This document shows, one piece after another, positions 152-11,290 of a DNA stretch of 11,574 nucleotides (positions within the stretch are counted from its first letter, which is position 1; the number at the start of each line of letters is the position of its first letter). The notes under the pieces were generated by a model. That model did no database searches and was not told where the DNA came from. It was given only the letters and a program-made list of their open reading frames with translations. Source of the stretch: Promethearchaeota archaeon (GTDB lineage Archaea > Asgardarchaeota > Lokiarchaeia > Sigyniarchaeales > SOKP01). The stretch is taken from contig JAFGGO010000064.1 in the NCBI GenBank assembly GCA_016930515.1, positions 1 to 11,574 on the forward strand, written 5' to 3'. The position numbers and the translations under genes are program-made.

Positions 152-752
152 TTGAAAATTTATAAAAGTAATATTGTTACTAATAAGGCAAAAACAATAA
201 AAAGATCAATTTTAACGATATTGTTCTTATTTTTTCACATCCAGTTTTCGAATTTTCCCTTTTCAATTTACCTGGACGAAAAACCTGACTATTCAGTAGT
301 CTAAAATAATAATAAAAGATCAATCGAATACCTTGAAAATAAATTCCAAACATAGGACAAAATTATTCTTGGGAGAACGATGGAATAATTATTTGTAATG
401 AATATGTTTCTGCTTTTTATCTATATTAATTCTGCAAAAACCTTGGGATTGGAAGGTGTTGATATTGTAGAGAATCTAATAATAATGAATTTATATTATG
501 GATTGGGTTTCTTAATTTAAATTCAATCCTCTGTTTTTCAAGCAAGGAACAATTGATGTCATAATGAACTATAACGCAATATGTATAATGAAAGATGTGT
601 CCAGAAGAATAATTCATTCTTTCCCTCTAGATTATATACATCGTCTAAAAAAAGAATATTTCGGGGATTCTATCCAATTTGTTTACTTTCTTATAATAAT
701 GGGATTTTTATTTATAGTTCAAATTCTTAAAATTTTTAAATTGATTAATTAA
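152..752 (+). pseudogene. Possible decayed gene for a secreted, C-terminally anchored protein
   Basis: TTG at 152 opens a 50-aa frame with a basic then hydrophobic signal-like segment (KAKTIKRSILTILFLFF), stop at 302-304. A fragment in another frame reads IPNIGQNYSWENDGIIICNE. ORF 564-752 ends in a hydrophobic helix plus basic tail. No intact long ORF. Confidence 0.25.
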
Positions 753-885
753 CTTTATCAAATAACTTTTTTGAACACTTACAACGAGGACACTTGAAGC
801 TATTTTCGTCCAAATTTTCAAATGGTTTCTCGTTCTTTTCATCAATATAAAGGAAATTACATCGCTTACATCGATATATTGCCAT
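745..885 (-). CDS. Rubredoxin-like small protein, 46 aa (MAIYRCKRCNFLYIDEKNEKPFENLDENSFKCPRCKCSKKLFDKVN)
   Basis: Translated by hand; absent from the ORF track. ATG at 885-883, TAA at 747-745, GAGGTGA RBS at 902-896. Pattern YxCxxC..Y...F..L....FxCPxC..K..F is typical of rubredoxins. Starts 26 bp after the oxidoreductase stop on the same strand. Confidence 0.85.
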   Translation of the reverse strand: MAIYRCKRCNFLYIDEKNEKPFENLDENSFKCPRCKCSKKLFDKVN

Positions 886-911: not shown

Positions 912-2267
912 TTATTCAAAGCGTTCTTTTTTATAATTCTTTTTTGGAGCATTGCATTCTGGACAAGTCCAATCTTCAGGCAGATCCTTGAATAAAACTT
1001 CCATTATAGCCTCATCGTAAACTGCCCCACAACTCAAGCAAATCCATTTGTATAAGTTGATGGCTTTCCGCAATTCCGCTTCATTTATCGATTTCTCGAT
1101 ATTTTTCGTCACATATGATATAGCTTCATTTTCTCCAAAAAGAATAGCACCTTTTAGGTTATTGTCTTTAAGCACGATTTTCTTGTAACATTTTTCTTTC
1201 GAATCCATACCCTTAAGTATTTGCCATCCCGCACCGATGGTATCCTTGTCCTCAAGATCAAATATACCAATAGAAGTGAGGTCTATTCCCATGATTTTAA
1301 GCGTGTTTTTAGGCACGGTTCCATTGTATTTTATTGAGTGCTTACCAACAATCGAATTTGCGACTATTTTCGCCTGATCAATGCAGGCAGGAATGATGCC
1401 CCATATTTGTCCCTTGAATTCTATGCAATCTCCGACCGCATATACATCTTTTGCGCTCGTCTCTAAAAGATCGTTAACAATGATTCCTCGATTGACTTCG
1501 AGTCCAGAATTTCTCGCTAAATTAATTGTTGGAGTAATTCCCGCTTGAATAAGAACGAGTTCAGCTTTGAGGAAATCTCCCCCATTTAATCGCACGCCTT
1601 TTACTCTATCTTCTTCAATAAGGACTTCTTCAGTTGAAGCATTTAAGACAACCTTGATACCCATCGATTCTATCTTATCTTTAAGTAATCCCCCGCAATC
1701 AACATCCAGTTGCCTTGGTAAAAGCCTTGGAAAAAACTCAACTACAGTTGTGTTCAATCCACAATTTTTTATTTGATTTGCGAGTTCTAGCCCCAACAAT
1801 CCACCGCCTATTATAAGGGCATTCTTGACATCTTCTTGGTCAATGAATCTTTTAATACTTTGAGCGTCTTTAATGTTACGTAAAGTATAAACACCTTTTC
1901 CTACCATGTTGGATGCATTCTTAATCGGAGGGATATTTGGCAAGCTTCCAGTTGCAATAACGAGTTTATCGTAAGAAACGGGATTTTTAAATCCATCAAT
2001 TGAGATATCTTTATTCTCAAGATGTATGCTTGTGATAGTTTTATCCAAGAATTGCTTGATTTGGTTTTTATCGTACCAGTCTTCTTTAAATACGATTAAA
2101 TCCTCAATAGATATCTTTTCCGAGATGACTTCGGGAAGTTTAACTCTCGTGTAATAGGAATGGGTCTCGCTTGAGTAAATCTCTATGTCCGCTTCCGTAT
2201 CAAGGTTTCTTAGATATTGAGCGGTAAAAGTCCCAGCAACGCCGTTTCCAATGATAACGATTTTCAT
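912..2267 (-). CDS. NAD(P)/FAD-dependent oxidoreductase (NirB N-terminal/rubredoxin reductase type) with fused C-terminal rubredoxin domain
   Basis: FAD motif IIGNGVAG, ATGS motif, NAD motif IIGGGLLGLE, ETSAKDVYAVGD. C-terminal WICLSCGAVYDE...FKDLPEDWTCPEC is a rubredoxin signature. Confidence 0.92.
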   Translation of the reverse strand: MKIVIIGNGVAGTFTAQYLRNLDTEADIEIYSSETHSYYTRVKLPEVISEKISIEDLIVFKEDWYDKNQIKQFLDKTITSIHLENKDISIDGFKNPVSYDKLVIATGSLPNIPPIKNASNMVGKGVYTLRNIKDAQSIKRFIDQEDVKNALIIGGGLLGLELANQIKNCGLNTTVVEFFPRLLPRQLDVDCGGLLKDKIESMGIKVVLNASTEEVLIEEDRVKGVRLNGGDFLKAELVLIQAGITPTINLARNSGLEVNRGIIVNDLLETSAKDVYAVGDCIEFKGQIWGIIPACIDQAKIVANSIVGKHSIKYNGTVPKNTLKIMGIDLTSIGIFDLEDKDTIGAGWQILKGMDSKEKCYKKIVLKDNNLKGAILFGENEAISYVTKNIEKSINEAELRKAINLYKWICLSCGAVYDEAIMEVLFKDLPEDWTCPECNAPKKNYKKERFE

Positions 2268-2346: not shown

Positions 2347-2356
2347 GAACATGTTC
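2347..2356. promoter_or_regulatory. Palindromic putative operator GAACATGTTC in the oxidoreductase/cooS divergent promoter
   Basis: Perfect 10-bp palindrome, repeated identically (with following GA) at 5158-5167 in the next divergent promoter. Confidence 0.65.
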
Positions 2357-2479: not shown

Positions 2480-4384
2480 TTGGAAAAAGAAAGAATTTCC
2501 TATCACGATACGGTCTTAAAGCTTTACGATAGGATTAAAAAGGACGGAATTACCAATATATGGGATAGATATGAAGCACAAGGGTTTAGCGGAGATCCAG
2601 ATAAAAGATGCCCGTTTTGTCTAAAAGGAGCGAGATGTGATCTATGCTCCAATGGCCCTTGTAGGGCAGACGCTTCCATTGATAAACGTGGCGTTTGTGG
2701 GATGACATCAGACGGAATGGCAATGAGGATGATGCTTCTCAGGAATGTGATGGGCACATCCACCTATCATTACCACACGGAAACTACCTTGAGGACGCTT
2801 AAAGCAGTCATTGATGGAAAATCTCCGTTTAAAATAAGCGAACCTGAAAAGTTAAGGAAATTCGCCTCCCGATTGGGGTTAAATGTTTCTGGGTCCGAGA
2901 TTCAGATTGCATCGAGACTTCACGATTTCGTCAAGGAGGATTTCAATAGACCTTTTACCGAACCAAGCAATATAGTTGAGAAATTAGCACCCTTGGAAAG
3001 ACAAGAAATATGGAAAAAAATTGGTATTTTTCCTGGCGGATTGTACGGTGAAATGATGTTCTCCACCAGTTCTTGCCTTACAAATGTGGACGGATATTAT
3101 ATAAGCTTGGCGTTGAAGGCCATGAGGCTTGGCATCGCAATGGCCTATCAAAGTCAAATCGTTAACGAGTATACACAGGACATATTGTTTAATATTCCTC
3201 GACCACACGAGATGCGGGTGGATTTAGGCGTGTTAGATCCCGATTACATTAACATCTTACCGAACGGACACGAACCCTTCTTGGGGTTTGCAATGGTTCA
3301 GCTAGCTCGCAAGCCCGAGTGGCAGGAAAAGGCCAAAGCAGTTGGTGCTAAGGGTTTGAGGATAATTGCAAACATCGAAACAGGCCAAGAAATGATTCAG
3401 AGATGGGAAATGGATGATGTTTTTTACGGTTTCACGGGTAATTGGATCATGCAGGAGGCGCTTCTTGCGAGCGGATGCGTGGATGTTTTCGTATGCGACA
3501 TGAACTGCTCAATGCCGATCGATCCGATATATGCAGAAAAATACAAGTTCAAGCTAATACCAGTCTCTGAAGTAGTTGCGTTCCAAGGCGTTGAAAACCG
3601 ATTGGATTACGTTCCAGAACTGGCAGAACAGCAAGCAGCAAAATTGCTTGAAATGGGGATCGCAAATTTCAAGGAAAGACGTGATACTGTCGATCCGATA
3701 ACGGGACTGACTATTAACAATGCTGTAGTTGGTTTCTCCACGGAAAGCATACTCGAAGCGCTTGGTGGCACGCTTGAACCTCTTTTAGGCGCCATAAAAA
3801 GCGGTACGATACGAGGAATTGCGGGATTAATCTCATGTACGACTCTTCGTGATTCTGGACAAGATGTGCATTCGATTGCTGTAGCCAAGGAGCTCATCAA
3901 GCGAGATGTCTTAGTGCTTTCAATGGGATGCGGAAATGGCGCTATGCAAGTTGGAGGGCTATGCTCTCCCGAAGCCAAGGAATTAGCAGGTCCTGGTCTA
4001 AAGGCTCTATGCGAAAGACTTGGAGTCCCTCCAGTTCTAAGTTATGGGACGTGTACTGATACGGGTAGGGTTGCTGACCTGATCGCCGCCGTTTCAAGCG
4101 CTTTAGGGGGCGTTCCAATCCCGGACCTACCTATCGTGGCTGCTGCACCGGAATACATGGAACAGAAGGCAACGATCGACGCGATTTTTGCGCTTGCGTT
4201 TGGTCTTTATACCTATGTAAATCCAGTTCCCACTGTAACGGGAGGTCCTGACTTGGTAAAGCTTCTCACGGTCGACTGCAAGGACGTTACAGGTGGAATA
4301 ATGCATGTGGAAACGGACGCAAAAGAAGCCGTTGACGCAATGCTCGTTCACATCGAAGCTAACAGAAAAAAATTAGGAATTTAA
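2480..4384 (+). CDS. cooS: Ni,Fe-CO dehydrogenase catalytic subunit family (prismane/CODH fold), divergent hybrid-cluster-like type (CooS-V-like)
   Basis: TTG start with GGTGA RBS. D-cluster CPFC (C44,C47). B-cluster C53,C56,C61,C73. Active-site positions H264 (NGHEP), E300 (NIETG), C343, C453, C484, C525, and EQK (E561, K563). GFSTE motif; 634 aa. Confidence 0.92.
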   Translation: MEKERISYHDTVLKLYDRIKKDGITNIWDRYEAQGFSGDPDKRCPFCLKGARCDLCSNGPCRADASIDKRGVCGMTSDGMAMRMMLLRNVMGTSTYHYHTETTLRTLKAVIDGKSPFKISEPEKLRKFASRLGLNVSGSEIQIASRLHDFVKEDFNRPFTEPSNIVEKLAPLERQEIWKKIGIFPGGLYGEMMFSTSSCLTNVDGYYISLALKAMRLGIAMAYQSQIVNEYTQDILFNIPRPHEMRVDLGVLDPDYINILPNGHEPFLGFAMVQLARKPEWQEKAKAVGAKGLRIIANIETGQEMIQRWEMDDVFYGFTGNWIMQEALLASGCVDVFVCDMNCSMPIDPIYAEKYKFKLIPVSEVVAFQGVENRLDYVPELAEQQAAKLLEMGIANFKERRDTVDPITGLTINNAVVGFSTESILEALGGTLEPLLGAIKSGTIRGIAGLISCTTLRDSGQDVHSIAVAKELIKRDVLVLSMGCGNGAMQVGGLCSPEAKELAGPGLKALCERLGVPPVLSYGTCTDTGRVADLIAAVSSALGGVPIPDLPIVAAAPEYMEQKATIDAIFALAFGLYTYVNPVPTVTGGPDLVKLLTVDCKDVTGGIMHVETDAKEAVDAMLVHIEANRKKLGI

Positions 4385-4585: not shown

Positions 4586-4753
4586 TTATTCCCTTTTCCT
4601 TTTATTTGTATGGTTTTCATTTTTTAATTTTACATCTAATTTAGATATAATTATATAAATATTAATTTTTTTTTTAAGCAATCACGAATCTCTCTGTCCA
4701 TTATACTTCAAATGGAATATATTCTTCTCAAAAAAATGAAAGATATTTACCTT

Positions 4754-5092
4754 CTAAAGAATCTTTGTTTCTTCCATAGGAGTTGGCGTTTTTATTACTA
4801 AGAATCGGAATGGCTTGCCAGAATTGTTCGAAAGTTTATGGGGGATCCTTGCGGGGCTAAAAACCAAATCGTCCTTTCTTACGAGTTCTTTTTCGTCACC
4901 AATTTCGATTTCACCTTCTCCTTCAATTATGTAAAAGTTCACATCTACGGGAGTGACATGTTTTTTCACGGCTTCTCCCGGTTTTAATTTGATGTGTACA
5001 ATAGTGGCGTGTTCAAATTCCATTAATTTTCGCACGTCAACTCCGTGGGGAGTTTGGGCGATATTTACTTCATTCATGTTTACAATTTTCAT
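4754..5092 (-). CDS. Cupin domain protein (Cupin_2)
   Basis: LKPGEAVKKHVTP..FYIIEGEG and VFSPARIPHKLSN cupin motifs; GAGG RBS upstream of the ATG. Confidence 0.9.
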   Translation of the reverse strand: MKIVNMNEVNIAQTPHGVDVRKLMEFEHATIVHIKLKPGEAVKKHVTPVDVNFYIIEGEGEIEIGDEKELVRKDDLVFSPARIPHKLSNNSGKPFRFLVIKTPTPMEETKIL

Positions 5093-5157: not shown

Positions 5158-5167
5158 GAACATGTTC
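5158..5167. promoter_or_regulatory. Palindromic putative operator GAACATGTTC in the cupin/ferredoxin divergent promoter
   Basis: Identical to 2347-2356. A related copy, AAATATATTC(GA), follows at 5176-5185. Confidence 0.65.
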
Positions 5168-5238: not shown

Positions 5239-5994
5239 ATGACGGAAGCCAAGAAAAAAGTAATAAAACGAAAAATAATTGAAATAAATGAAGAAAAATG
5301 CACTGGTTGTGGACAATGCGTTATTGCCTGCGCTGAAGGTGCTCTTGCCATTATTGATGGAAAAGCAAGAGTCGTAAACGATGTATTTTGCGATGGTTTA
5401 GGTGCTTGTATTGGTGAATGTCCTGAAGGCGCTTTAGAAATTATTGAACGGGAAGCCCCAGATTTCGATGAAGAAGCAGTAGAAAAATACTTGGAAAGTA
5501 CTTCAAAAACTAAAAAAATCCCAGAAGATAAATCCATCAATCAAGGACATGTTTGTAATTGTCCCTCTTCAGCACCAATAGTTTACGACCAACCATACGA
5601 GGAAATCGATGGCTCTGATCAGATTCTATCTGCTTTGCGGCAATGGCCGACAAAACTATCTCTAGTTAATCCAAATGCACCATATTTCAATAATCAAGAG
5701 CTATTAATTATATCTGATTGCTCCCCCGTGGCATTTGGCGATTTTCACAGGAAAATTATGAAAGGTAAGCCTCTTGTCACCGTCTGTCCCATGTTAGGAC
5801 TAGGAGAACTCGAGTTGAATAAGTTAGAAGAAATTTTAAAAAGTAACCCAATCGAGCACGCGGAAGTAATTCTAATGGAAGTGCCTTGTTGTCAGAAATT
5901 AAAAATCTTTTTGGACCCAATCATTGGAAAGATAGATCGGGATATTTCAATCGAAGAAAAGATTATTTCTCGAGAAGGTAAGATAATCAATTGA
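5239..5994 (+). CDS. 4Fe-4S dicluster ferredoxin-domain protein with C-terminal Cys-containing domain (FrdX-like, family often adjacent to hcp)
   Basis: CTGCGQCVIAC and CDGLGACIGECP ferredoxin motifs, CNCP, family motifs LRQWPTKL.LV.P.APYF, SDC..AFGDFH, CPML and MEVPCC. Confidence 0.85.
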   Translation: MTEAKKKVIKRKIIEINEEKCTGCGQCVIACAEGALAIIDGKARVVNDVFCDGLGACIGECPEGALEIIEREAPDFDEEAVEKYLESTSKTKKIPEDKSINQGHVCNCPSSAPIVYDQPYEEIDGSDQILSALRQWPTKLSLVNPNAPYFNNQELLIISDCSPVAFGDFHRKIMKGKPLVTVCPMLGLGELELNKLEEILKSNPIEHAEVILMEVPCCQKLKIFLDPIIGKIDRDISIEEKIISREGKIIN

Positions 5995-6112: not shown

Positions 6113-6769
6113 TTATTTGTTGAAAACTACTTTTTTCTTAATGATCTTTCTCATCATGACGGAGAGCGCGGATTTAGATTTACCCAAATCGTTTGCGAGC
6201 TCTTCAAGCGATATTTTCCGGGGAATTTCGAAAAATCCTGTCTCTATTGCTTTATCCAAAACGGTTGATTCCTCGAGCGTGAGTTTATTCGAATCGTCGT
6301 TGAGATTGTAGGGGGCCCTACCTAAACGAAGTAATTCGAAATCTAAGCCTTTCTGTTCGAATAACGAGAGCAGCTTGTCGATGCGTTCCCTTGAGGCAAT
6401 AAGTCTCCAGTAAGCATTACCATCTCTCACATTTACAGGAAAGTTAACCAGCACGCCGCATTTAATAACAGCGTATAATAAGTAGGGATCTTTTGTTTTC
6501 ACATTAAATTTCACGCGAGTGTCTTCTCGCTCCATCAGGTTAAATTCAAATACGGAAGGATGGTTTTTAATTACTTCGATAATAGCGTCGATTTTATGGT
6601 ATAAAATTTCAACGATCGAATTTCCAATGGATTTCTCCAAATCGTAAGGAAGAAAATATTGAATTTCCATCTTAACATCCGGAAATTGGTTGTAAATCGT
6701 TGCTATCCAAATGTCTTTAGGAAATTTTATTTTTATTCGAGCGAGAGATGGTTGAGTGCCACCGTTCAT
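6113..6769 (-). CDS. Transcriptional regulator with C-terminal HTH_10 (bacterio-opsin activator-type) domain
   Basis: C-terminal LTLEESTVLDKAIETGFFEIPRKISLEELANDLGKSKSALSVMMRK matches the LT..Q..L..A...GY(F)..PR...L.ELA..LGIS pattern of HTH_10. The N-terminal ~160 aa is a putative effector domain. Confidence 0.88.
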   Translation of the reverse strand: MNGGTQPSLARIKIKFPKDIWIATIYNQFPDVKMEIQYFLPYDLEKSIGNSIVEILYHKIDAIIEVIKNHPSVFEFNLMEREDTRVKFNVKTKDPYLLYAVIKCGVLVNFPVNVRDGNAYWRLIASRERIDKLLSLFEQKGLDFELLRLGRAPYNLNDDSNKLTLEESTVLDKAIETGFFEIPRKISLEELANDLGKSKSALSVMMRKIIKKKVVFNK

Positions 6770-7082: not shown

Positions 7083-7889
7083 ACGGACAGTCTTGAGTTA
7101 TTTATTATAGTTGTTTACAATTCGATTATTGCCATATTTGCGTGCGTGGCGTTAGGACTAGCTAGTAAAACGCAAAAGAACTTGAGATCTTGGCTTTTAG
7201 TATATATATCTTTTGCCTTAGCGAATCTTTTCTTATTTATCCGTTTTGCTTTGTTCCTGTTTTACTACTTGGCAAATATTTTCTTTGCGGTGGCAGTAGT
7301 ATTCTTGTTCGGAGTAGTATTTAAGGAATATTTCAAACTTTTCGTTAGAGCTGACCACATCAAAACGAGTTTAAAAAATACAACGATTGGTGTTTCGCTA
7401 GTTCCTCCAATAGTAATAGGGATTCAAATTTTTATGTTTATTTTTATATCGATTAGTATCTTAATGTTGATAAGAATTTATATGAAAACTCGGTCTGTCA
7501 CCAAGTTATTCTTCCTTATAAGTACCGTATCAGCGTTATTAAGCGTGCTAATGAATATTCTATATAGTTTTGGGGTTAAAGGCACTTCCTTTCTCAGTTA
7601 TCTCTTTAATGCTTTTTTTTCTACATTAATGCTATCTTCTGGATTCATTGCATTATTAGAGAAAAAGTTTTATGACACTTTGAACGAAAAAAACTCGCTA
7701 AAGGACAAATATTCTCACGATTTAGGAAATATACTCCACGTCATTTCTATGACATACGATTTATTTAACATTGATTCTGTTTCAAATTTCAAAAAGGACG
7801 AAAAAAAAGAGTCTAACGATTTAGACGATCTAATAAAGGTCAAAATAAACGAAGCATCAAAGTTGGTCAGAGATATCAGAGATCTTTAA
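7083..7889 (+). CDS. Multi-pass membrane protein with C-terminal HisKA/DHp-like segment, no HATPase domain
   Basis: About six hydrophobic helices, then H-box-like YSHDLGNILHVI and a second helix (INEASKLVRDIRDL), then stop. The frame is open upstream of the track's GTG (7146) back to 7077; GAGGT RBS at 7070-7074 precedes ACG at 7083. Confidence 0.7.
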   Translation, partial: TDSLELFIIVVYNSIIAIFACVALGLASKTQKNLRSWLLVYISFALANLFLFIRFALFLFYYLANIFFAVAVVFLFGVVFKEYFKLFVRADHIKTSLKNTTIGVSLVPPIVIGIQIFMFIFISISILMLIRIYMKTRSVTKLFFLISTVSALLSVLMNILYSFGVKGTSFLSYLFNAFFSTLMLSSGFIALLEKKFYDTLNEKNSLKDKYSHDLGNILHVISMTYDLFNIDSVSNFKKDEKKESNDLDDLIKVKINEASKLVRDIRDL

Positions 7890-8042: not shown

Positions 8043-8639
8043 ATGGAACAAAAAGAAAATTTACTTCTTGGAATATGTGGTAGCCCGAGAAATCAAGGTA
8101 CGGAATACGCCGTTAAATATGCCTTGGATTACGCTAAAGAGAAGTTTGATTTTAAAACGGAATTTTGGAGCGTTAGAGGTAAAACCATAAAGTTTTGCAT
8201 CCATTGCGACTATTGCATTCGAGAGAAAAAAGGATGCATGCATGTTGATAACTTGGATGAACTTTATTCCTTACTAAAGGAAGCTAAATTCCTCCTCCTT
8301 GGAACACCCGTTTTTCAAGGAAATTTATCAGGACAACTCAAGACTGTAATGGATCGCTGTCGGGCTTTAATCGCGTTAAATCCAGATGTATTCAAGGGAA
8401 AAGTTGGGATGGCACTAGCGGTCGGTGGAGATCGGAGCGGAGGACAAGAAATCGCAATCAGGACGATACTTGATTTTTTTCAGCAAAATCACGTGATTTC
8501 CGTTTCTGGAGGAGCTTTTGGAGCAAATATTGGAGCAAGTTTATGGACGAGAGATCAGGGAAGAAAAGGCGTGGAACAGGATGAAGAGGGCCTTAGAGCG
8601 ATCAGGAAAGTCGTTAAAAGAATGGCAGATTTCTTATAA
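8043..8639 (+). CDS. Iron-sulfur flavoprotein (Isf-like; flavodoxin-fold NADPH-dependent FMN reductase family)
   Basis: GICGSPR FMN-phosphate loop, compact CIHCDYC-x6-C 4Fe-4S motif, GTPVFQGNLSGQLKTVMDR and GGDRSGGQE motifs. Confidence 0.9.
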   Translation: MEQKENLLLGICGSPRNQGTEYAVKYALDYAKEKFDFKTEFWSVRGKTIKFCIHCDYCIREKKGCMHVDNLDELYSLLKEAKFLLLGTPVFQGNLSGQLKTVMDRCRALIALNPDVFKGKVGMALAVGGDRSGGQEIAIRTILDFFQQNHVISVSGGAFGANIGASLWTRDQGRKGVEQDEEGLRAIRKVVKRMADFL

Positions 8640-8693: not shown

Positions 8694-8990
8694 TTATTTT
8701 ACATCGAATAATTTTTTTGCTTCCTTTTCTCTCAAACCCGACACTCCCCACAACTCCTTGAACCAATATTTTCCCTTATGAATGACCACGGGTGTGTTCA
8801 CGACGCATTTATCCTCGTCGCAAAATATTTTCAGGAAGTTTGGATCGTGCACTAGCTGGTCCACGAGTTCTTTGTCTTCGATACTTTTTTCTACATACTG
8901 GACATTCTTTTTCTTTAGCCAATCTTTTAGATCGTGACAATGAGAACAACCTTCTTTTGTGATAACAATGGGTAATTGCATTTCCGTCAT
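8694..8990 (-). CDS. Glutaredoxin-like protein
   Basis: N-terminal TKEGCSHC active site, K.WL....V.Y.E.SI segment, cis-Pro-like NTPVVI..GK. Confidence 0.82.
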   Translation of the reverse strand: MTEMQLPIVITKEGCSHCHDLKDWLKKKNVQYVEKSIEDKELVDQLVHDPNFLKIFCDEDKCVVNTPVVIHKGKYWFKELWGVSGLREKEAKKLFDVK

Positions 8991-9116: not shown

Positions 9117-11273
9117 TTATTGGACATCCAATTGATTTTTACAATAGGGGCAATTTAATAATATTTCCTCGTCGCAGGTCTCTAATTCTTCGCTTTTTAA
9201 AATGTTCTTCCAGCACACGAGCTTGTCACCTTTTAAAATCATGTCTCTCCCGTGATGTTGAGGAATGATGTCCTTTGTCTTGCAATGGGAACAAATCAGC
9301 GAAGTTGCTTGCGATTCGATCTCTTCTATGGGCATTTGTTTGTATAAGAACTTATAACGGAAGATAGTCATTCCGTTTGCGAGTACGAGCAATGAAACGC
9401 CCATATCGCCAATACCTACGGCTAACCAGAGTGTCATGAGTCCAATTACGGTTAAAAACGCAAAAGTGAGCTTTATTGAAATAGAAGTCCAAATATTTTG
9501 TTTAATTTTTTTGTTCGTTTTTTTTGCAATATCCACGAAAGTAAGAATCTTTTTAAGATCGTCGTTAATTATAATTACATCGGCAGTCTCAACGGTAATA
9601 TCTGTCGCTGATGCACCAATTGCTATCCCTAAATCAGATAATGCCAAAGCAGGAGCGTCATTGATCCCATCTCCGACCATCGCAACGCCTTTATATTTCT
9701 TTTTTAAATCTTTTATTTCCTCTGATTTTTGGTTTGGTAACCTCTCACCTAGCGACTCATCTATATCCAAACAGGACCCTATTGTATTGCATACGAGTTG
9801 ATTGTCGCCTGAAATTAATACAGTCTTAAATCCACGCTTTTTTAAACCTTCAATAATGATTGGTGCAGTCACTCTAAGCACGTCCCGTATAGTGATAAAA
9901 CCGATAAATTTAGTATCGAGAGCTAATAAGATTGGAATGGTGCCTAACTGTTCGACTTCTTCTAAGTCCTTTATAGGTAGATCAACACCGAATTCTTCCA
10001 GATACGCTTGATTTCCAATTCGATAGGTTTTACCCTCAATTTCACCTTGGATCCCCTTGCCTTTCGCAATTTCAAAATTATTTACGGGATAAAACGATAT
10101 TTCTAACGTGCTAGTTTGATTCGTTATGGCTTTTCCTATTGGATGTTCCGAAAGAGATTCCAAGCTTCCGGCAATCTTCAGAAGTTCGCTTTTTTCAAGT
10201 CCATTATATGGTACGATATCAAATATTTTAAGCTTTCCTTCCGTCAATGTTCCCGTTTTATCAAACGCAAATACTTCAATTTCTTTTACCTTCTCTATAA
10301 AACGATTTCCTTTGACTAAAATTCCTTCTCTTGCGAGTTTTGTAAGTGAGGCGATGTTAGCTAAGGGTGTTGACAATGTTAATGCGCACGGACAGGAAAC
10401 CACGAGGAGAACCAGCCCTCTATAAAACCAATCGTAAAAATTATGAAAGAAGAATTGAGGGACAATCATTACTGTCAAGGATAATGCTAAAATAACCGGC
10501 GTGTAATATTTTGCAAATTTTTCAATAAATTTTTCTTGCTTGCTCCTATTTAATTGGGCAGTTCTCACACTGTCAGCGATCTGTGCAACCAAAGTATTCG
10601 TGCTTTCCTTTAAAACGGTCATGTCTATAAAACTATCTGAATTTAGGCTAGCTGCAAATATTTCATCACCTTCTTTTTTATAAACGGGAATTGATTCACC
10701 AGTTATCGCGCTTTCGTTGAAATATGAACTTCCTTTTATTATTCTACCGTCTAAAGGCACCTTCATTCCCGGTTTAATGCCAACTATTTCCCCAATTTTG
10801 ACATCCTTCGATAGTACACTCTTATATCCCTTTTCTGTTTTCAATAAAGCTTCGTCTGGTGCTAGCTCTAATAAGTCCTTTATTGCGTTTCGGGACTTAT
10901 CTGCCGTTATTTCTTCTAATTTTTCGGCAATTGAATATAATAAAATTGCCATTGCACCTTCTTGACCGTGTAGTATGAAAAAGGACGCAATTGCTGCGAT
11001 AACCATTAATATATTAGCAGATATTCTCTTATTTTTTAAGTCTTCGATGGCTTCCAACACCACTCCTGGACTCGAAAACATTATCGATGTAAAAGCAAGT
11101 ATTTGAGAGATAATTACCTCTTCAAGAACAAACTCTACAAATATTGCAATACCAATCAATATTGCTGATGGAATGATAAAAAACCAGAACTTTTCTTCAA
11201 AAAACGATTCTTTTTCTTCCTCGATTTCTCCTAATGGAACTTCGCAAATAGAACTAGAGCAGGCGTGCGTCAC
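9117..11273 (-). CDS. zntA: Heavy-metal P1B-type ATPase, probably Zn/Cd/Pb-exporting (P1B-2)
   Basis: TGES, SCPCAL, DKTGTLT, SEHP and GDGINDAP motifs. Lys in the penultimate TM and Asp (GDMG) in the last TM fit P1B-2. Start placed at GTG 11273-11271 because the track's GTG at 11282 lies inside an AGGTGA RBS. Confidence 0.9.
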   Translation of the reverse strand: MTHACSSSICEVPLGEIEEEKESFFEEKFWFFIIPSAILIGIAIFVEFVLEEVIISQILAFTSIMFSSPGVVLEAIEDLKNKRISANILMVIAAIASFFILHGQEGAMAILLYSIAEKLEEITADKSRNAIKDLLELAPDEALLKTEKGYKSVLSKDVKIGEIVGIKPGMKVPLDGRIIKGSSYFNESAITGESIPVYKKEGDEIFAASLNSDSFIDMTVLKESTNTLVAQIADSVRTAQLNRSKQEKFIEKFAKYYTPVILALSLTVMIVPQFFFHNFYDWFYRGLVLLVVSCPCALTLSTPLANIASLTKLAREGILVKGNRFIEKVKEIEVFAFDKTGTLTEGKLKIFDIVPYNGLEKSELLKIAGSLESLSEHPIGKAITNQTSTLEISFYPVNNFEIAKGKGIQGEIEGKTYRIGNQAYLEEFGVDLPIKDLEEVEQLGTIPILLALDTKFIGFITIRDVLRVTAPIIIEGLKKRGFKTVLISGDNQLVCNTIGSCLDIDESLGERLPNQKSEEIKDLKKKYKGVAMVGDGINDAPALALSDLGIAIGASATDITVETADVIIINDDLKKILTFVDIAKKTNKKIKQNIWTSISIKLTFAFLTVIGLMTLWLAVGIGDMGVSLLVLANGMTIFRYKFLYKQMPIEEIESQATSLICSHCKTKDIIPQHHGRDMILKGDKLVCWKNILKSEELETCDEEILLNCPYCKNQLDVQ

Positions 11274-11290
11274 TTTTTTCACCTATGATA

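Follow-up and report, generated by a model that had tools for sequence, protein, structure and literature searches.

Does an Asgard archaeal gene that passes for a carbon monoxide dehydrogenase (CODH) gene encode an enzyme that can handle CO? The question is raised by a CooS-like protein of 634 residues encoded on a stretch of 11,574 nucleotides from Promethearchaeota archaeon (GenBank assembly GCA_016930515.1, contig JAFGGO010000064.1), which is referred to here in its full length as the window. A sequence-only reading of the window had proposed that the active site of this protein carries the ligands of a hybrid cluster and that the protein is probably not a CODH. The analysis described here established the sequence identity of the protein, its ligand set, its clade membership, its conserved synteny and a conserved putative operator. 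The ligand set, the similarity to CooS-V of C. hydrogenoformans and the clade supported the proposal, with the loss of Ni and of CO activity being carried over from the homologue. Collectively, the results suggested that the protein is very probably a Ni-free CooS-V-type enzyme built on a CODH scaffold and placed in a redox-stress module of its Asgard host.

The gene is an uninterrupted open reading frame (ORF) with a TTG start and a Shine-Dalgarno-like GGTGA box about 8 nt upstream, and its product was assigned by Pfam to the Prismane/CODH family (E = 6e-133). Against TIGR01702 (CO_DH_cata), the NCBIfam equivalog model for the anaerobic CODH catalytic subunit, the protein scored 708.6 bits compared to a cut-off of 478, and an annotation pipeline would therefore name it a CODH. 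Its score against TIGR01703, the hydroxylamine reductase model for Hcp, was 23.4 bits compared to a cut-off of 360.8, which places it outside the Hcp family. All source-named relatives at 80-90% identity are labelled "anaerobic carbon-monoxide dehydrogenase catalytic subunit". The model score and these labels agree with the earlier expectation that automatic annotation would over-call CO metabolism at this locus.

The active-site residues argue against such a name. Every codon discussed here was read by script from the window coordinates (Table 1). Thermococcus AM4 CODH (6T7J) and C. hydrogenoformans CODH-IV (6ELQ) served as canonical references for HMMER alignments, and the CODH-II numbering (His93, Cys295, Lys563) was taken from Jeoung et al. 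2022 (PMC9311411) via the CooS-V alignment. First, I299-E300 faces the canonical Cys-Cys of CCTGNE, so that Cys294 is replaced by Ile and Cys295 by Glu, and the canonical C-cluster ligand set of one His and five Cys is incomplete. Second, Y96 faces the catalytic His of AAAHSDH, and the acid-base His93 of canonical Ni,Fe-CODHs is thus missing. Third, E561 faces the Ser or His in WMSEKA or YQHEKA, two residues ahead of the conserved Lys. These are the three replacements that had been read from the sequence by eye (GICCTG to ANIETG, His93 to Tyr96 and WMHEKA to a YMEQKA with the EQKA of Hcp), and both the codons and the alignments bore them out, the last one aligning also with WYEQKA of Hcp. The remaining ligands (H264, C343, C453, C484 and C525) and the B-cluster cysteines (C53, C56, C61 and C73) are all kept. 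In the D-cluster motif, C44-x2-C47-x5-C53, canonical CODHs have Gly in the column of C47. None of the signature residues varies across 15 orthologues, which come from Asgard archaea, other archaea and bacteria; the deviations therefore represent a conserved signature rather than chance or an error of sequencing.

The best solved relative of the protein in an HMMER search of the PDB was 7B7Q (E = 1e-201, 674 bits, about 58% identity over the full length), and the next-best structures, which are true Ni-CODHs, reached at most 379 bits. The entry 7B7Q represents C. hydrogenoformans CooS-V (Jeoung et al. 2022, PMC9311411), and it deviates from canonical CODHs in the same way as the window protein does (SIESGQE, GTSTYTYH and YMEQKA). 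The hybrid cluster of CooS-V is held by His259, Glu295, Cys338, Cys449, Cys480, Cys521 and Glu556; Asn337 belongs to the second sphere, and the exchange of Gly for Cys41 (G41C) turns the bridging cluster into a [2Fe-2S] cluster (PMC9311411). H264, E300, C343, C453, C484, C525 and E561 match these seven ligands one-to-one, and N342 and C47 match Asn337 and Cys41. CooS-V is Ni-free, contains a morphing [4Fe-3S-nO] hybrid cluster and neither oxidises CO nor reduces CO2, while a C295E variant of CODH-II lost both Ni and CO oxidation (PMC9311411). CooS-V, which had been named from the outset as the precedent, held up in score, in ligands and in its published properties, and by homology the hybrid-cluster chemistry of the window protein is quite likely the same.

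The residues also agree with a published class. Within clade D of the Ni-CODHs, Inoue et al. (2019; PMC6344411) define a structural group D-1 whose D-cluster is of type III (C-x2-C-x5-C), in which Glu replaces the first of the C-cluster cysteines and Tyr the acid-base His while Lys remains, and in which the position equivalent to Glu494 of Hcp, two residues before Lys, is also Glu; the Hcp-like nature of this site was already remarked upon in that study. A 2026 study (PMC13056359) assigned ChCODH-V to clade D. Every D-1 signature position was found in the window protein: the type III D-cluster, H-E-C-C-C-C, the Tyr/Lys pair and the Glu two residues before Lys. In a tree inferred by maximum likelihood from 54 full-length representatives of the family, a set without the CooS-V and CODH-II sequences themselves, the protein fell within a clade of D-1-signature sequences with 100% support in the Shimodaira-Hasegawa-like approximate likelihood-ratio test (SH-aLRT), in line with the anticipated grouping with CooS-V and clade D. 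D-2-like, clade-C-like and canonical sequences were placed outside this clade, and P0122, a D-1 representative inside it, scored 705 bits to 7B7Q. Judged by sequence, the protein is of the CooS-V type and of group D-1, a kind already characterised and catalogued and not a new one. Another member of the clade, P0137, sits on a long branch with almost none of the cluster ligands left (signature -KCLSSEPPSSDM), and its scaffold may have degenerated or been put to another use.

How far the site resembles that of Hcp was addressed by profile-profile alignment (hhalign) with a pair of true Hcps that are encoded in Asgard genomes and score above the TIGR01703 cut-off. The alignment, at a probability of 96%, was local and of modest reliability. 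His264, Asn342-Cys343, Cys453, Cys484, Cys525 and Glu561-Gln-Lys563 aligned with the His, the Asn-Cys, three Cys and the Glu-Gln-Lys of Hcp, so the EQKA resemblance is real. At the same modest reliability, the first ligand Glu of Hcp (in THGEM) stood opposite E304 rather than E300, and E304 is the Glu conserved across all CODHs (CTGNE). The His-Glu-4Cys-Glu pattern that had been ascribed to the protein matched Hcp in this alignment in its His, its four Cys and its second Glu, while the first Glu appears to occupy another column. E300 is probably analogous to the Hcp ligand without sharing its alignment column, which agrees with the two origins of hybrid clusters that have been proposed (PMC9311411).

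The closest relatives of the protein are all from Asgard archaea. In addition to the CooS-V-type gene, the 4.0-Mb host assembly contains two CdhA-type genes, a combination that fits the published occurrence of CooS-V-like genes in organisms with other CODHs (PMC9311411); Hcp was not found in this assembly. Among 201 Asgard genomes that were sampled, 39 had the enzyme, including 24 of the 40 from the host's family, and two had true Hcp. A scan of species genomes confirmed relatives at at least 538 places. The best 80 of these are 74-84% identical to the window protein and come from Asgard lineages, Methanolobus, Methanofastidiosum, Thermoplasmata, Bathyarchaeia, Dehalococcoidia, WOR-3, Desulfobacterales and Actinomycetota. 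Between Archaea and Bacteria of many phyla, the orthologues at these loci (L008-L087) share 74-78% identity. Such identity across domains far exceeds what vertical descent would lead one to expect and implies repeated horizontal transfer under strong constraint; as far as its sequences tell, the subclade is evidently mobile and remarkably conserved. In two Asgard genomes, G171 (C41:40581-42257) and G192 (C4:36662-38341), the match ends at residue 560/561, just before the ligand Glu561.

The genomic neighbourhood was compared by clustering neighbouring genes over 81 loci, 53 of which have at least 1.5 kb on both flanks. The most widespread companion is a gene for a ferredoxin-like protein with an AF_0155 domain, which lies on the same strand and at most three genes away in 26 of the 81 loci (23 of the 53 with both flanks) and ranges over Asgard archaea, Dehalococcoidia, WOR-3, Methanofastidiosum, Thermoplasmata and Methanophagales. 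The fusion of an NAD(P)H:rubredoxin-reductase-type (NROR) flavoprotein to rubredoxin (Rd), which is divergent to the enzyme gene, is limited to the 19 closest Asgard loci, where genes for flavodiiron protein, rubrerythrin and desulfoferrodoxin are often nearby. In the closest relatives, the order NROR-Rd / cooS-V / Fer4 / HTH_10 / FMN_red / Grx is kept. Genes for CooC, a CooF-type protein, acetyl-CoA synthase (ACS) or hydrogenase (ECH) were present neither in the window nor in two fully read Asgard loci (L006 and L007).

Thousands of proteins belong to the AF_0155 family; most of them bear the label "ATP-binding protein" or "ferredoxin", and the former is often a mislabel. Four unrelated members were viewed from the partner's side: one lies directly before a 513-aa, Hcp-sized Prismane-family gene and behind an Rrf2 regulator, two are in clusters for defence against reactive oxygen species, and one is with cupin and metal-handling genes. 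The structure model of the partner had a mean predicted local distance difference test (pLDDT) score of 60 and was confident only in the C-terminal alpha/beta domain. A Foldseek search of the PDB with this model gave no match at E <= 0.001, and a profile search of PDB sequences matched the ferredoxin domain alone. In the window's ferredoxin-like protein, the invariant motifs of the AF_0155 domain are C-P, D-C, H, C-P and MEVPCC, and an additional metal or thiol site could be located in this domain.

A palindrome, GAACATGTTC, links the enzyme gene to its putative partner. It precedes both the CooS-V-type gene and the ferredoxin-like gene in about 20 Asgard loci, each time 10-15 nt upstream of a TATA-like box, and is absent from the non-Asgard loci. 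This pattern indicates that the two genes are locally co-regulated, and the conserved HTH_10 protein is probably the regulator that would act at the palindrome. The host genome contains five exact copies, compared to a median of four for control palindromes of the same composition. Three of the five are intergenic, two in the cluster and one before a DUF166 gene (contig C47). A broad stress regulon marked by GAACATGTTC was considered and rejected, as the copies do not exceed the controls; with so few of them, the putative operator appears to be local. Positions 4715-4724 of the window are also listed for the palindrome.

Table 1. Coordinates of the CooS-V-type gene, its diagnostic residues and the other features of the window
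Feature	Coordinates	Strand	Remarks
CooS-V-type gene (Ni-CODH clade D, structural group D-1)	2480..4384	+	TTG start, 634 aa; translation, family models, structure alignments, tree
N-terminal cluster motifs	2609..2698	+	C44-x2-C47 type III D-cluster; C53, C56, C61, C73 [4Fe-4S] B-cluster
Tyr96 (TAT), position of the catalytic acid-base His93 in Ni-CODHs	2765..2767	+	codon read, structure alignments
His264 (CAC) = CooS-V His259 = CODH His261	3269..3271	+	codon read, alignments
Glu300 (GAA, ANIETGQE) in place of C-cluster Cys295; = CooS-V Glu295	3377..3379	+	codon read, alignments
Asn342-Cys343 = CooS-V Asn337/Cys338	3503..3508	+	C343 codon 3506-3508
Cys453 = CooS-V Cys449	3836..3838	+	codon read, alignments
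Cys484 = CooS-V Cys480	3929..3931	+	codon read, alignments
Cys525 = CooS-V Cys521 (persulfide-forming Cys)	4052..4054	+	codon read, alignments
Glu561-Gln-Lys563 (EQK; YMEQKA) = CooS-V Glu556, Hcp Glu494 motif	4160..4168	+	E561 GAA 4160-4162, K563 4166-4168; Lys kept
GAACATGTTC palindrome, divergent NROR/cooS-V promoter region	2347..2356	.	about 20 Asgard loci have it 72-133 nt upstream of the gene
Second GAACATGTTC copy, before the ferredoxin-like gene	5158..5167	.	just upstream of a TATA-like box
2x[4Fe-4S] ferredoxin domain + Cys-rich C-terminal AF_0155 (PF27217) domain	5239..5994	+	candidate electron partner
HTH_10 transcription regulator	6113..6769	-	kept in cluster; candidate palindrome binder
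NROR-type FAD flavoprotein fused to C-terminal rubredoxin	912..2267	-	divergent to the cooS-V-type gene
Rubredoxin ORF, 46 aa, CxxC...CxxC	745..885	-	downstream of the reductase; 45-aa rubredoxin at the same place in L006 and L007
Small cupin	4754..5092	-	recurrent companion of the AF_0155 protein
Membrane protein, 247 aa, multi-pass	7146..7889	+	
NAD(P)H-dependent FMN reductase	8043..8639	+	kept in Asgard cluster
Glutaredoxin-like protein	8694..8990	-	kept in Asgard cluster
P1B-type heavy-metal ATPase	9117..11282	-	

Several other features of the window were recorded. The small cupin is found repeatedly with the AF_0155 protein, with or without a CooS-V-type gene (L042, 7611-7931; L101, 4853-5176). 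A P1B-type ATPase recurs near CooS-V-type genes (also at L052, L054, L059, L062, L063 and L066), lies directly downstream of the CooS-V-type gene in Methanolobus and others (8 of the 81 loci), and is also found near an AF_0155-cupin pair on an Altiarchaeota contig (L101); this recurrence may be a link to metal homeostasis. Near the C-terminal part of the multi-pass membrane protein lies an H-box resembling that of histidine kinases (SHDLGN); the protein shows neither an ATPase domain nor a Pfam match and may be a truncated or split sensor kinase. The separate rubredoxin ORF is short enough to be readily lost to length filters. Positions 1-744 have 27% G+C and contain no convincing ORF, and scans of the window with Rfam and for tRNAs found no RNA genes.

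On this basis a mechanism can be outlined, in which the cluster type, the absence of Ni and the lack of CO activity are carried over from CooS-V, and the electron donor, the physiological substrate and the regulator are inferred steps. By homology to the CooS-V crystal structures, the enzyme would be a homodimer whose subunits are bridged by a [2Fe-2S] D-cluster through C44 and C47. Each subunit would contain one [4Fe-4S] B-cluster (C53/C56/C61/C73) and, at H264, E300, C343, C453, C484, C525 and E561, one Ni-free Fe/S/O hybrid cluster that is [4Fe-3S] when reduced and becomes oxo-bridged, with a persulfide on Cys525, when oxidised. It is predicted from the homologue that CO and CO2 are not interconverted. 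In CooS-V, the B-cluster has a potential of -400 mV and the hybrid cluster has potentials of -390, -170 and +80 mV, about 300 mV lower than those of Hcp, and the substrate channel is open only in the reduced state, which its authors take as the behaviour of a reductase (PMC9311411). The window protein would most likely act as a low-potential reductase on a small oxidant that contains N or O; for the homologue, hydroxylamine is the sole substrate shown. Electrons would probably enter via the adjacent 2x[4Fe-4S]/AF_0155 protein; we infer that a low-potential ferredoxin-type donor suits a -400 mV wire better than rubredoxin does. The divergent NROR-rubredoxin genes would belong to the same putative-operator-controlled unit, and the enzyme would be part of a locally regulated redox-stress module with a likely role in defence against oxidative or nitrosative stress.

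A more specific proposal can be put forward only tentatively. It is possible that in Asgard archaea the enzyme, its AF_0155 partner and the NROR-rubredoxin pair form a detoxification module for NO, hydroxylamine or peroxide that takes on the work of Hcp and is switched by the HTH_10 protein at GAACATGTTC. Several observations weigh against the main reading, a CooS-V-type reductase without CO activity in a redox-stress module. First, the AF_0155 protein is not an obligate companion: its gene is missing beside the enzyme gene in 30 of the 53 loci with both flanks, and a full-length copy was not found in enzyme-carrying Methanolobus genomes. Second, typical rubredoxin potentials are far above those of the enzyme's B-cluster and hybrid cluster, and the NROR-Rd pair is therefore unlikely to be the direct donor. 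Third, CooS-V is only 58% identical to the window protein, and the Ni and CO properties of the 74-84% subclade are assigned by homology. Fourth, the hydroxylamine turnover of CooS-V is very slow (kcat 0.13 per s) and its NO reduction was not detected (PMC9311411), which weighs on a reductase role. Fifth, for M. acetivorans cooS1F and cooS2, which belong to D-1 according to Inoue et al. (PMC6344411), cited genetics suggest a contribution to CO removal at high CO pressure.

The slow turnover would also fit a protein that is mainly a sensor of redox state or small molecules, in which the morphing cluster reports the redox state and no substrate is turned over. The cluster changes and the channel opens and closes with the redox state in CooS-V, whose sole known activity is the slow one (PMC9311411). 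A study of genomic context (PMC13056359) suggests regulatory or redox-sensing roles for clade D, and a transcription regulator is adjacent to the enzyme gene in the window, as is a PAS protein in relatives. However, the full three-cluster electron wire is kept, a ferredoxin-like neighbour is frequent, and Pfam identified no DNA-binding or signalling domain in the protein, all of which make a sensor unlikely and favour the CooS-V-type redox enzyme.

It is quite improbable that the protein is a working CODH, perhaps a weak or specialised one, that removes or senses CO beside two CdhA-type enzymes. The TIGR01702 score, the retention of five of the six C-cluster ligands and of Lys563, and the reported contribution of the M. 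acetivorans D-1 genes to CO removal at high CO pressure are in its favour, and with two CdhA-type genes in the host the maturation of Ni clusters is presumably available. These points are met by CooS-V, which with an identical ligand set lacks both Ni and CO/CO2 activity, and by the C295E substitution, which alone abolishes Ni and CO oxidation in CODH-II (PMC9311411). In addition, Tyr replaces the catalytic His, none of the cooC, cooF-type, ACS and hydrogenase genes is in the window, and the D-1 gene cooS2 of C. autoethanogenum (PMC6344411) can be dispensed with and does not provide CO oxidation when acsA is mutated. Operation in the oxidative direction, from a low-potential substrate through rubredoxin to O2- or H2O2-reducing enzymes of the flavodiiron or rubrerythrin type, is hardly credible: the divergent NROR-Rd and rubredoxin genes, the flavodiiron, rubrerythrin and desulfoferrodoxin genes adjoining the relatives, and a -400 mV wire that would run downhill to rubredoxin would suit it, but no oxidisable substrate of hybrid clusters is known, and the CooS-V channel, which opens in the reduced state only, was read as that of a reductase (PMC9311411).

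A Ni-free CooS-V-type enzyme at this locus has consequences for annotation. Matches to cooS are routinely counted as markers of CO oxidation and the Wood-Ljungdahl pathway in metagenome-assembled genomes, including those of Asgard archaea (PMC7495880; marker list in PMC11216029). The gene described here passes a curated CODH model yet, judging by the homologue, almost certainly cannot handle CO, and metabolic reconstructions that rely on it would therefore over-call CO metabolism. Its wide spread, together with the unusual conservation across domains, implies an important function, and the conserved partner gene and the putative operator provide concrete handles on it. If the detoxification module proposed above is real, a class of orphan enzymes would acquire an electron donor of physiological relevance and a function open to testing, and "cooS" would drop out as evidence of CO metabolism in many Asgard reconstructions. 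The basic classification is already in the literature and is unchanged; the Asgard host, the conserved AF_0155 partner, the local putative operator and the near-absence of Hcp from the sampled Asgard genomes are added here as leads.

The nearest known systems compare with the window protein as follows. With canonical CooS enzymes (CODH-II, CODH-IV and Thermococcus AM4 CODH) it has the fold and the cluster wire in common; it differs from them in Glu for Cys295, Tyr for His93, Ile for Cys294 and an extra Glu before Lys. With Hcp (TIGR01703; D. vulgaris 1W9M), the CooS-V homologue has the kind of Fe/S/O cluster in common; both types are found in stress-type genomic settings, and an AF_0155-type ferredoxin gene is also located directly 5' of an Hcp-sized (513-aa) Prismane-family gene. 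However, the N-terminal half of the window protein does not align with Hcp, and CooS-V, unlike Hcp, is dimeric with a bridging cluster and has potentials about 300 mV lower. The closest system is CooS-V itself (PDB 7B7Q, 7B7T, 7B95, 7B97 and 7B9A), which the protein resembles in the CxxC [2Fe-2S] D-cluster, the B-cluster, the Tyr in place of His and the Lys. CooS-V comes from a Firmicute and the window protein from an Asgard archaeon. The latter belongs to a far more conserved subclade (74-84% identity across phyla) to which CooS-V is an outlier. It also lies in a conserved cluster under a putative operator, whereas CooS-V relatives have been described as lacking informative context. Finally, Inoue et al. 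linked D-1 with zinc-binding dehydrogenase and HypA/HypB genes (PMC6344411); neither is in the window, and the recurrent neighbour found here is the AF_0155-type ferredoxin.

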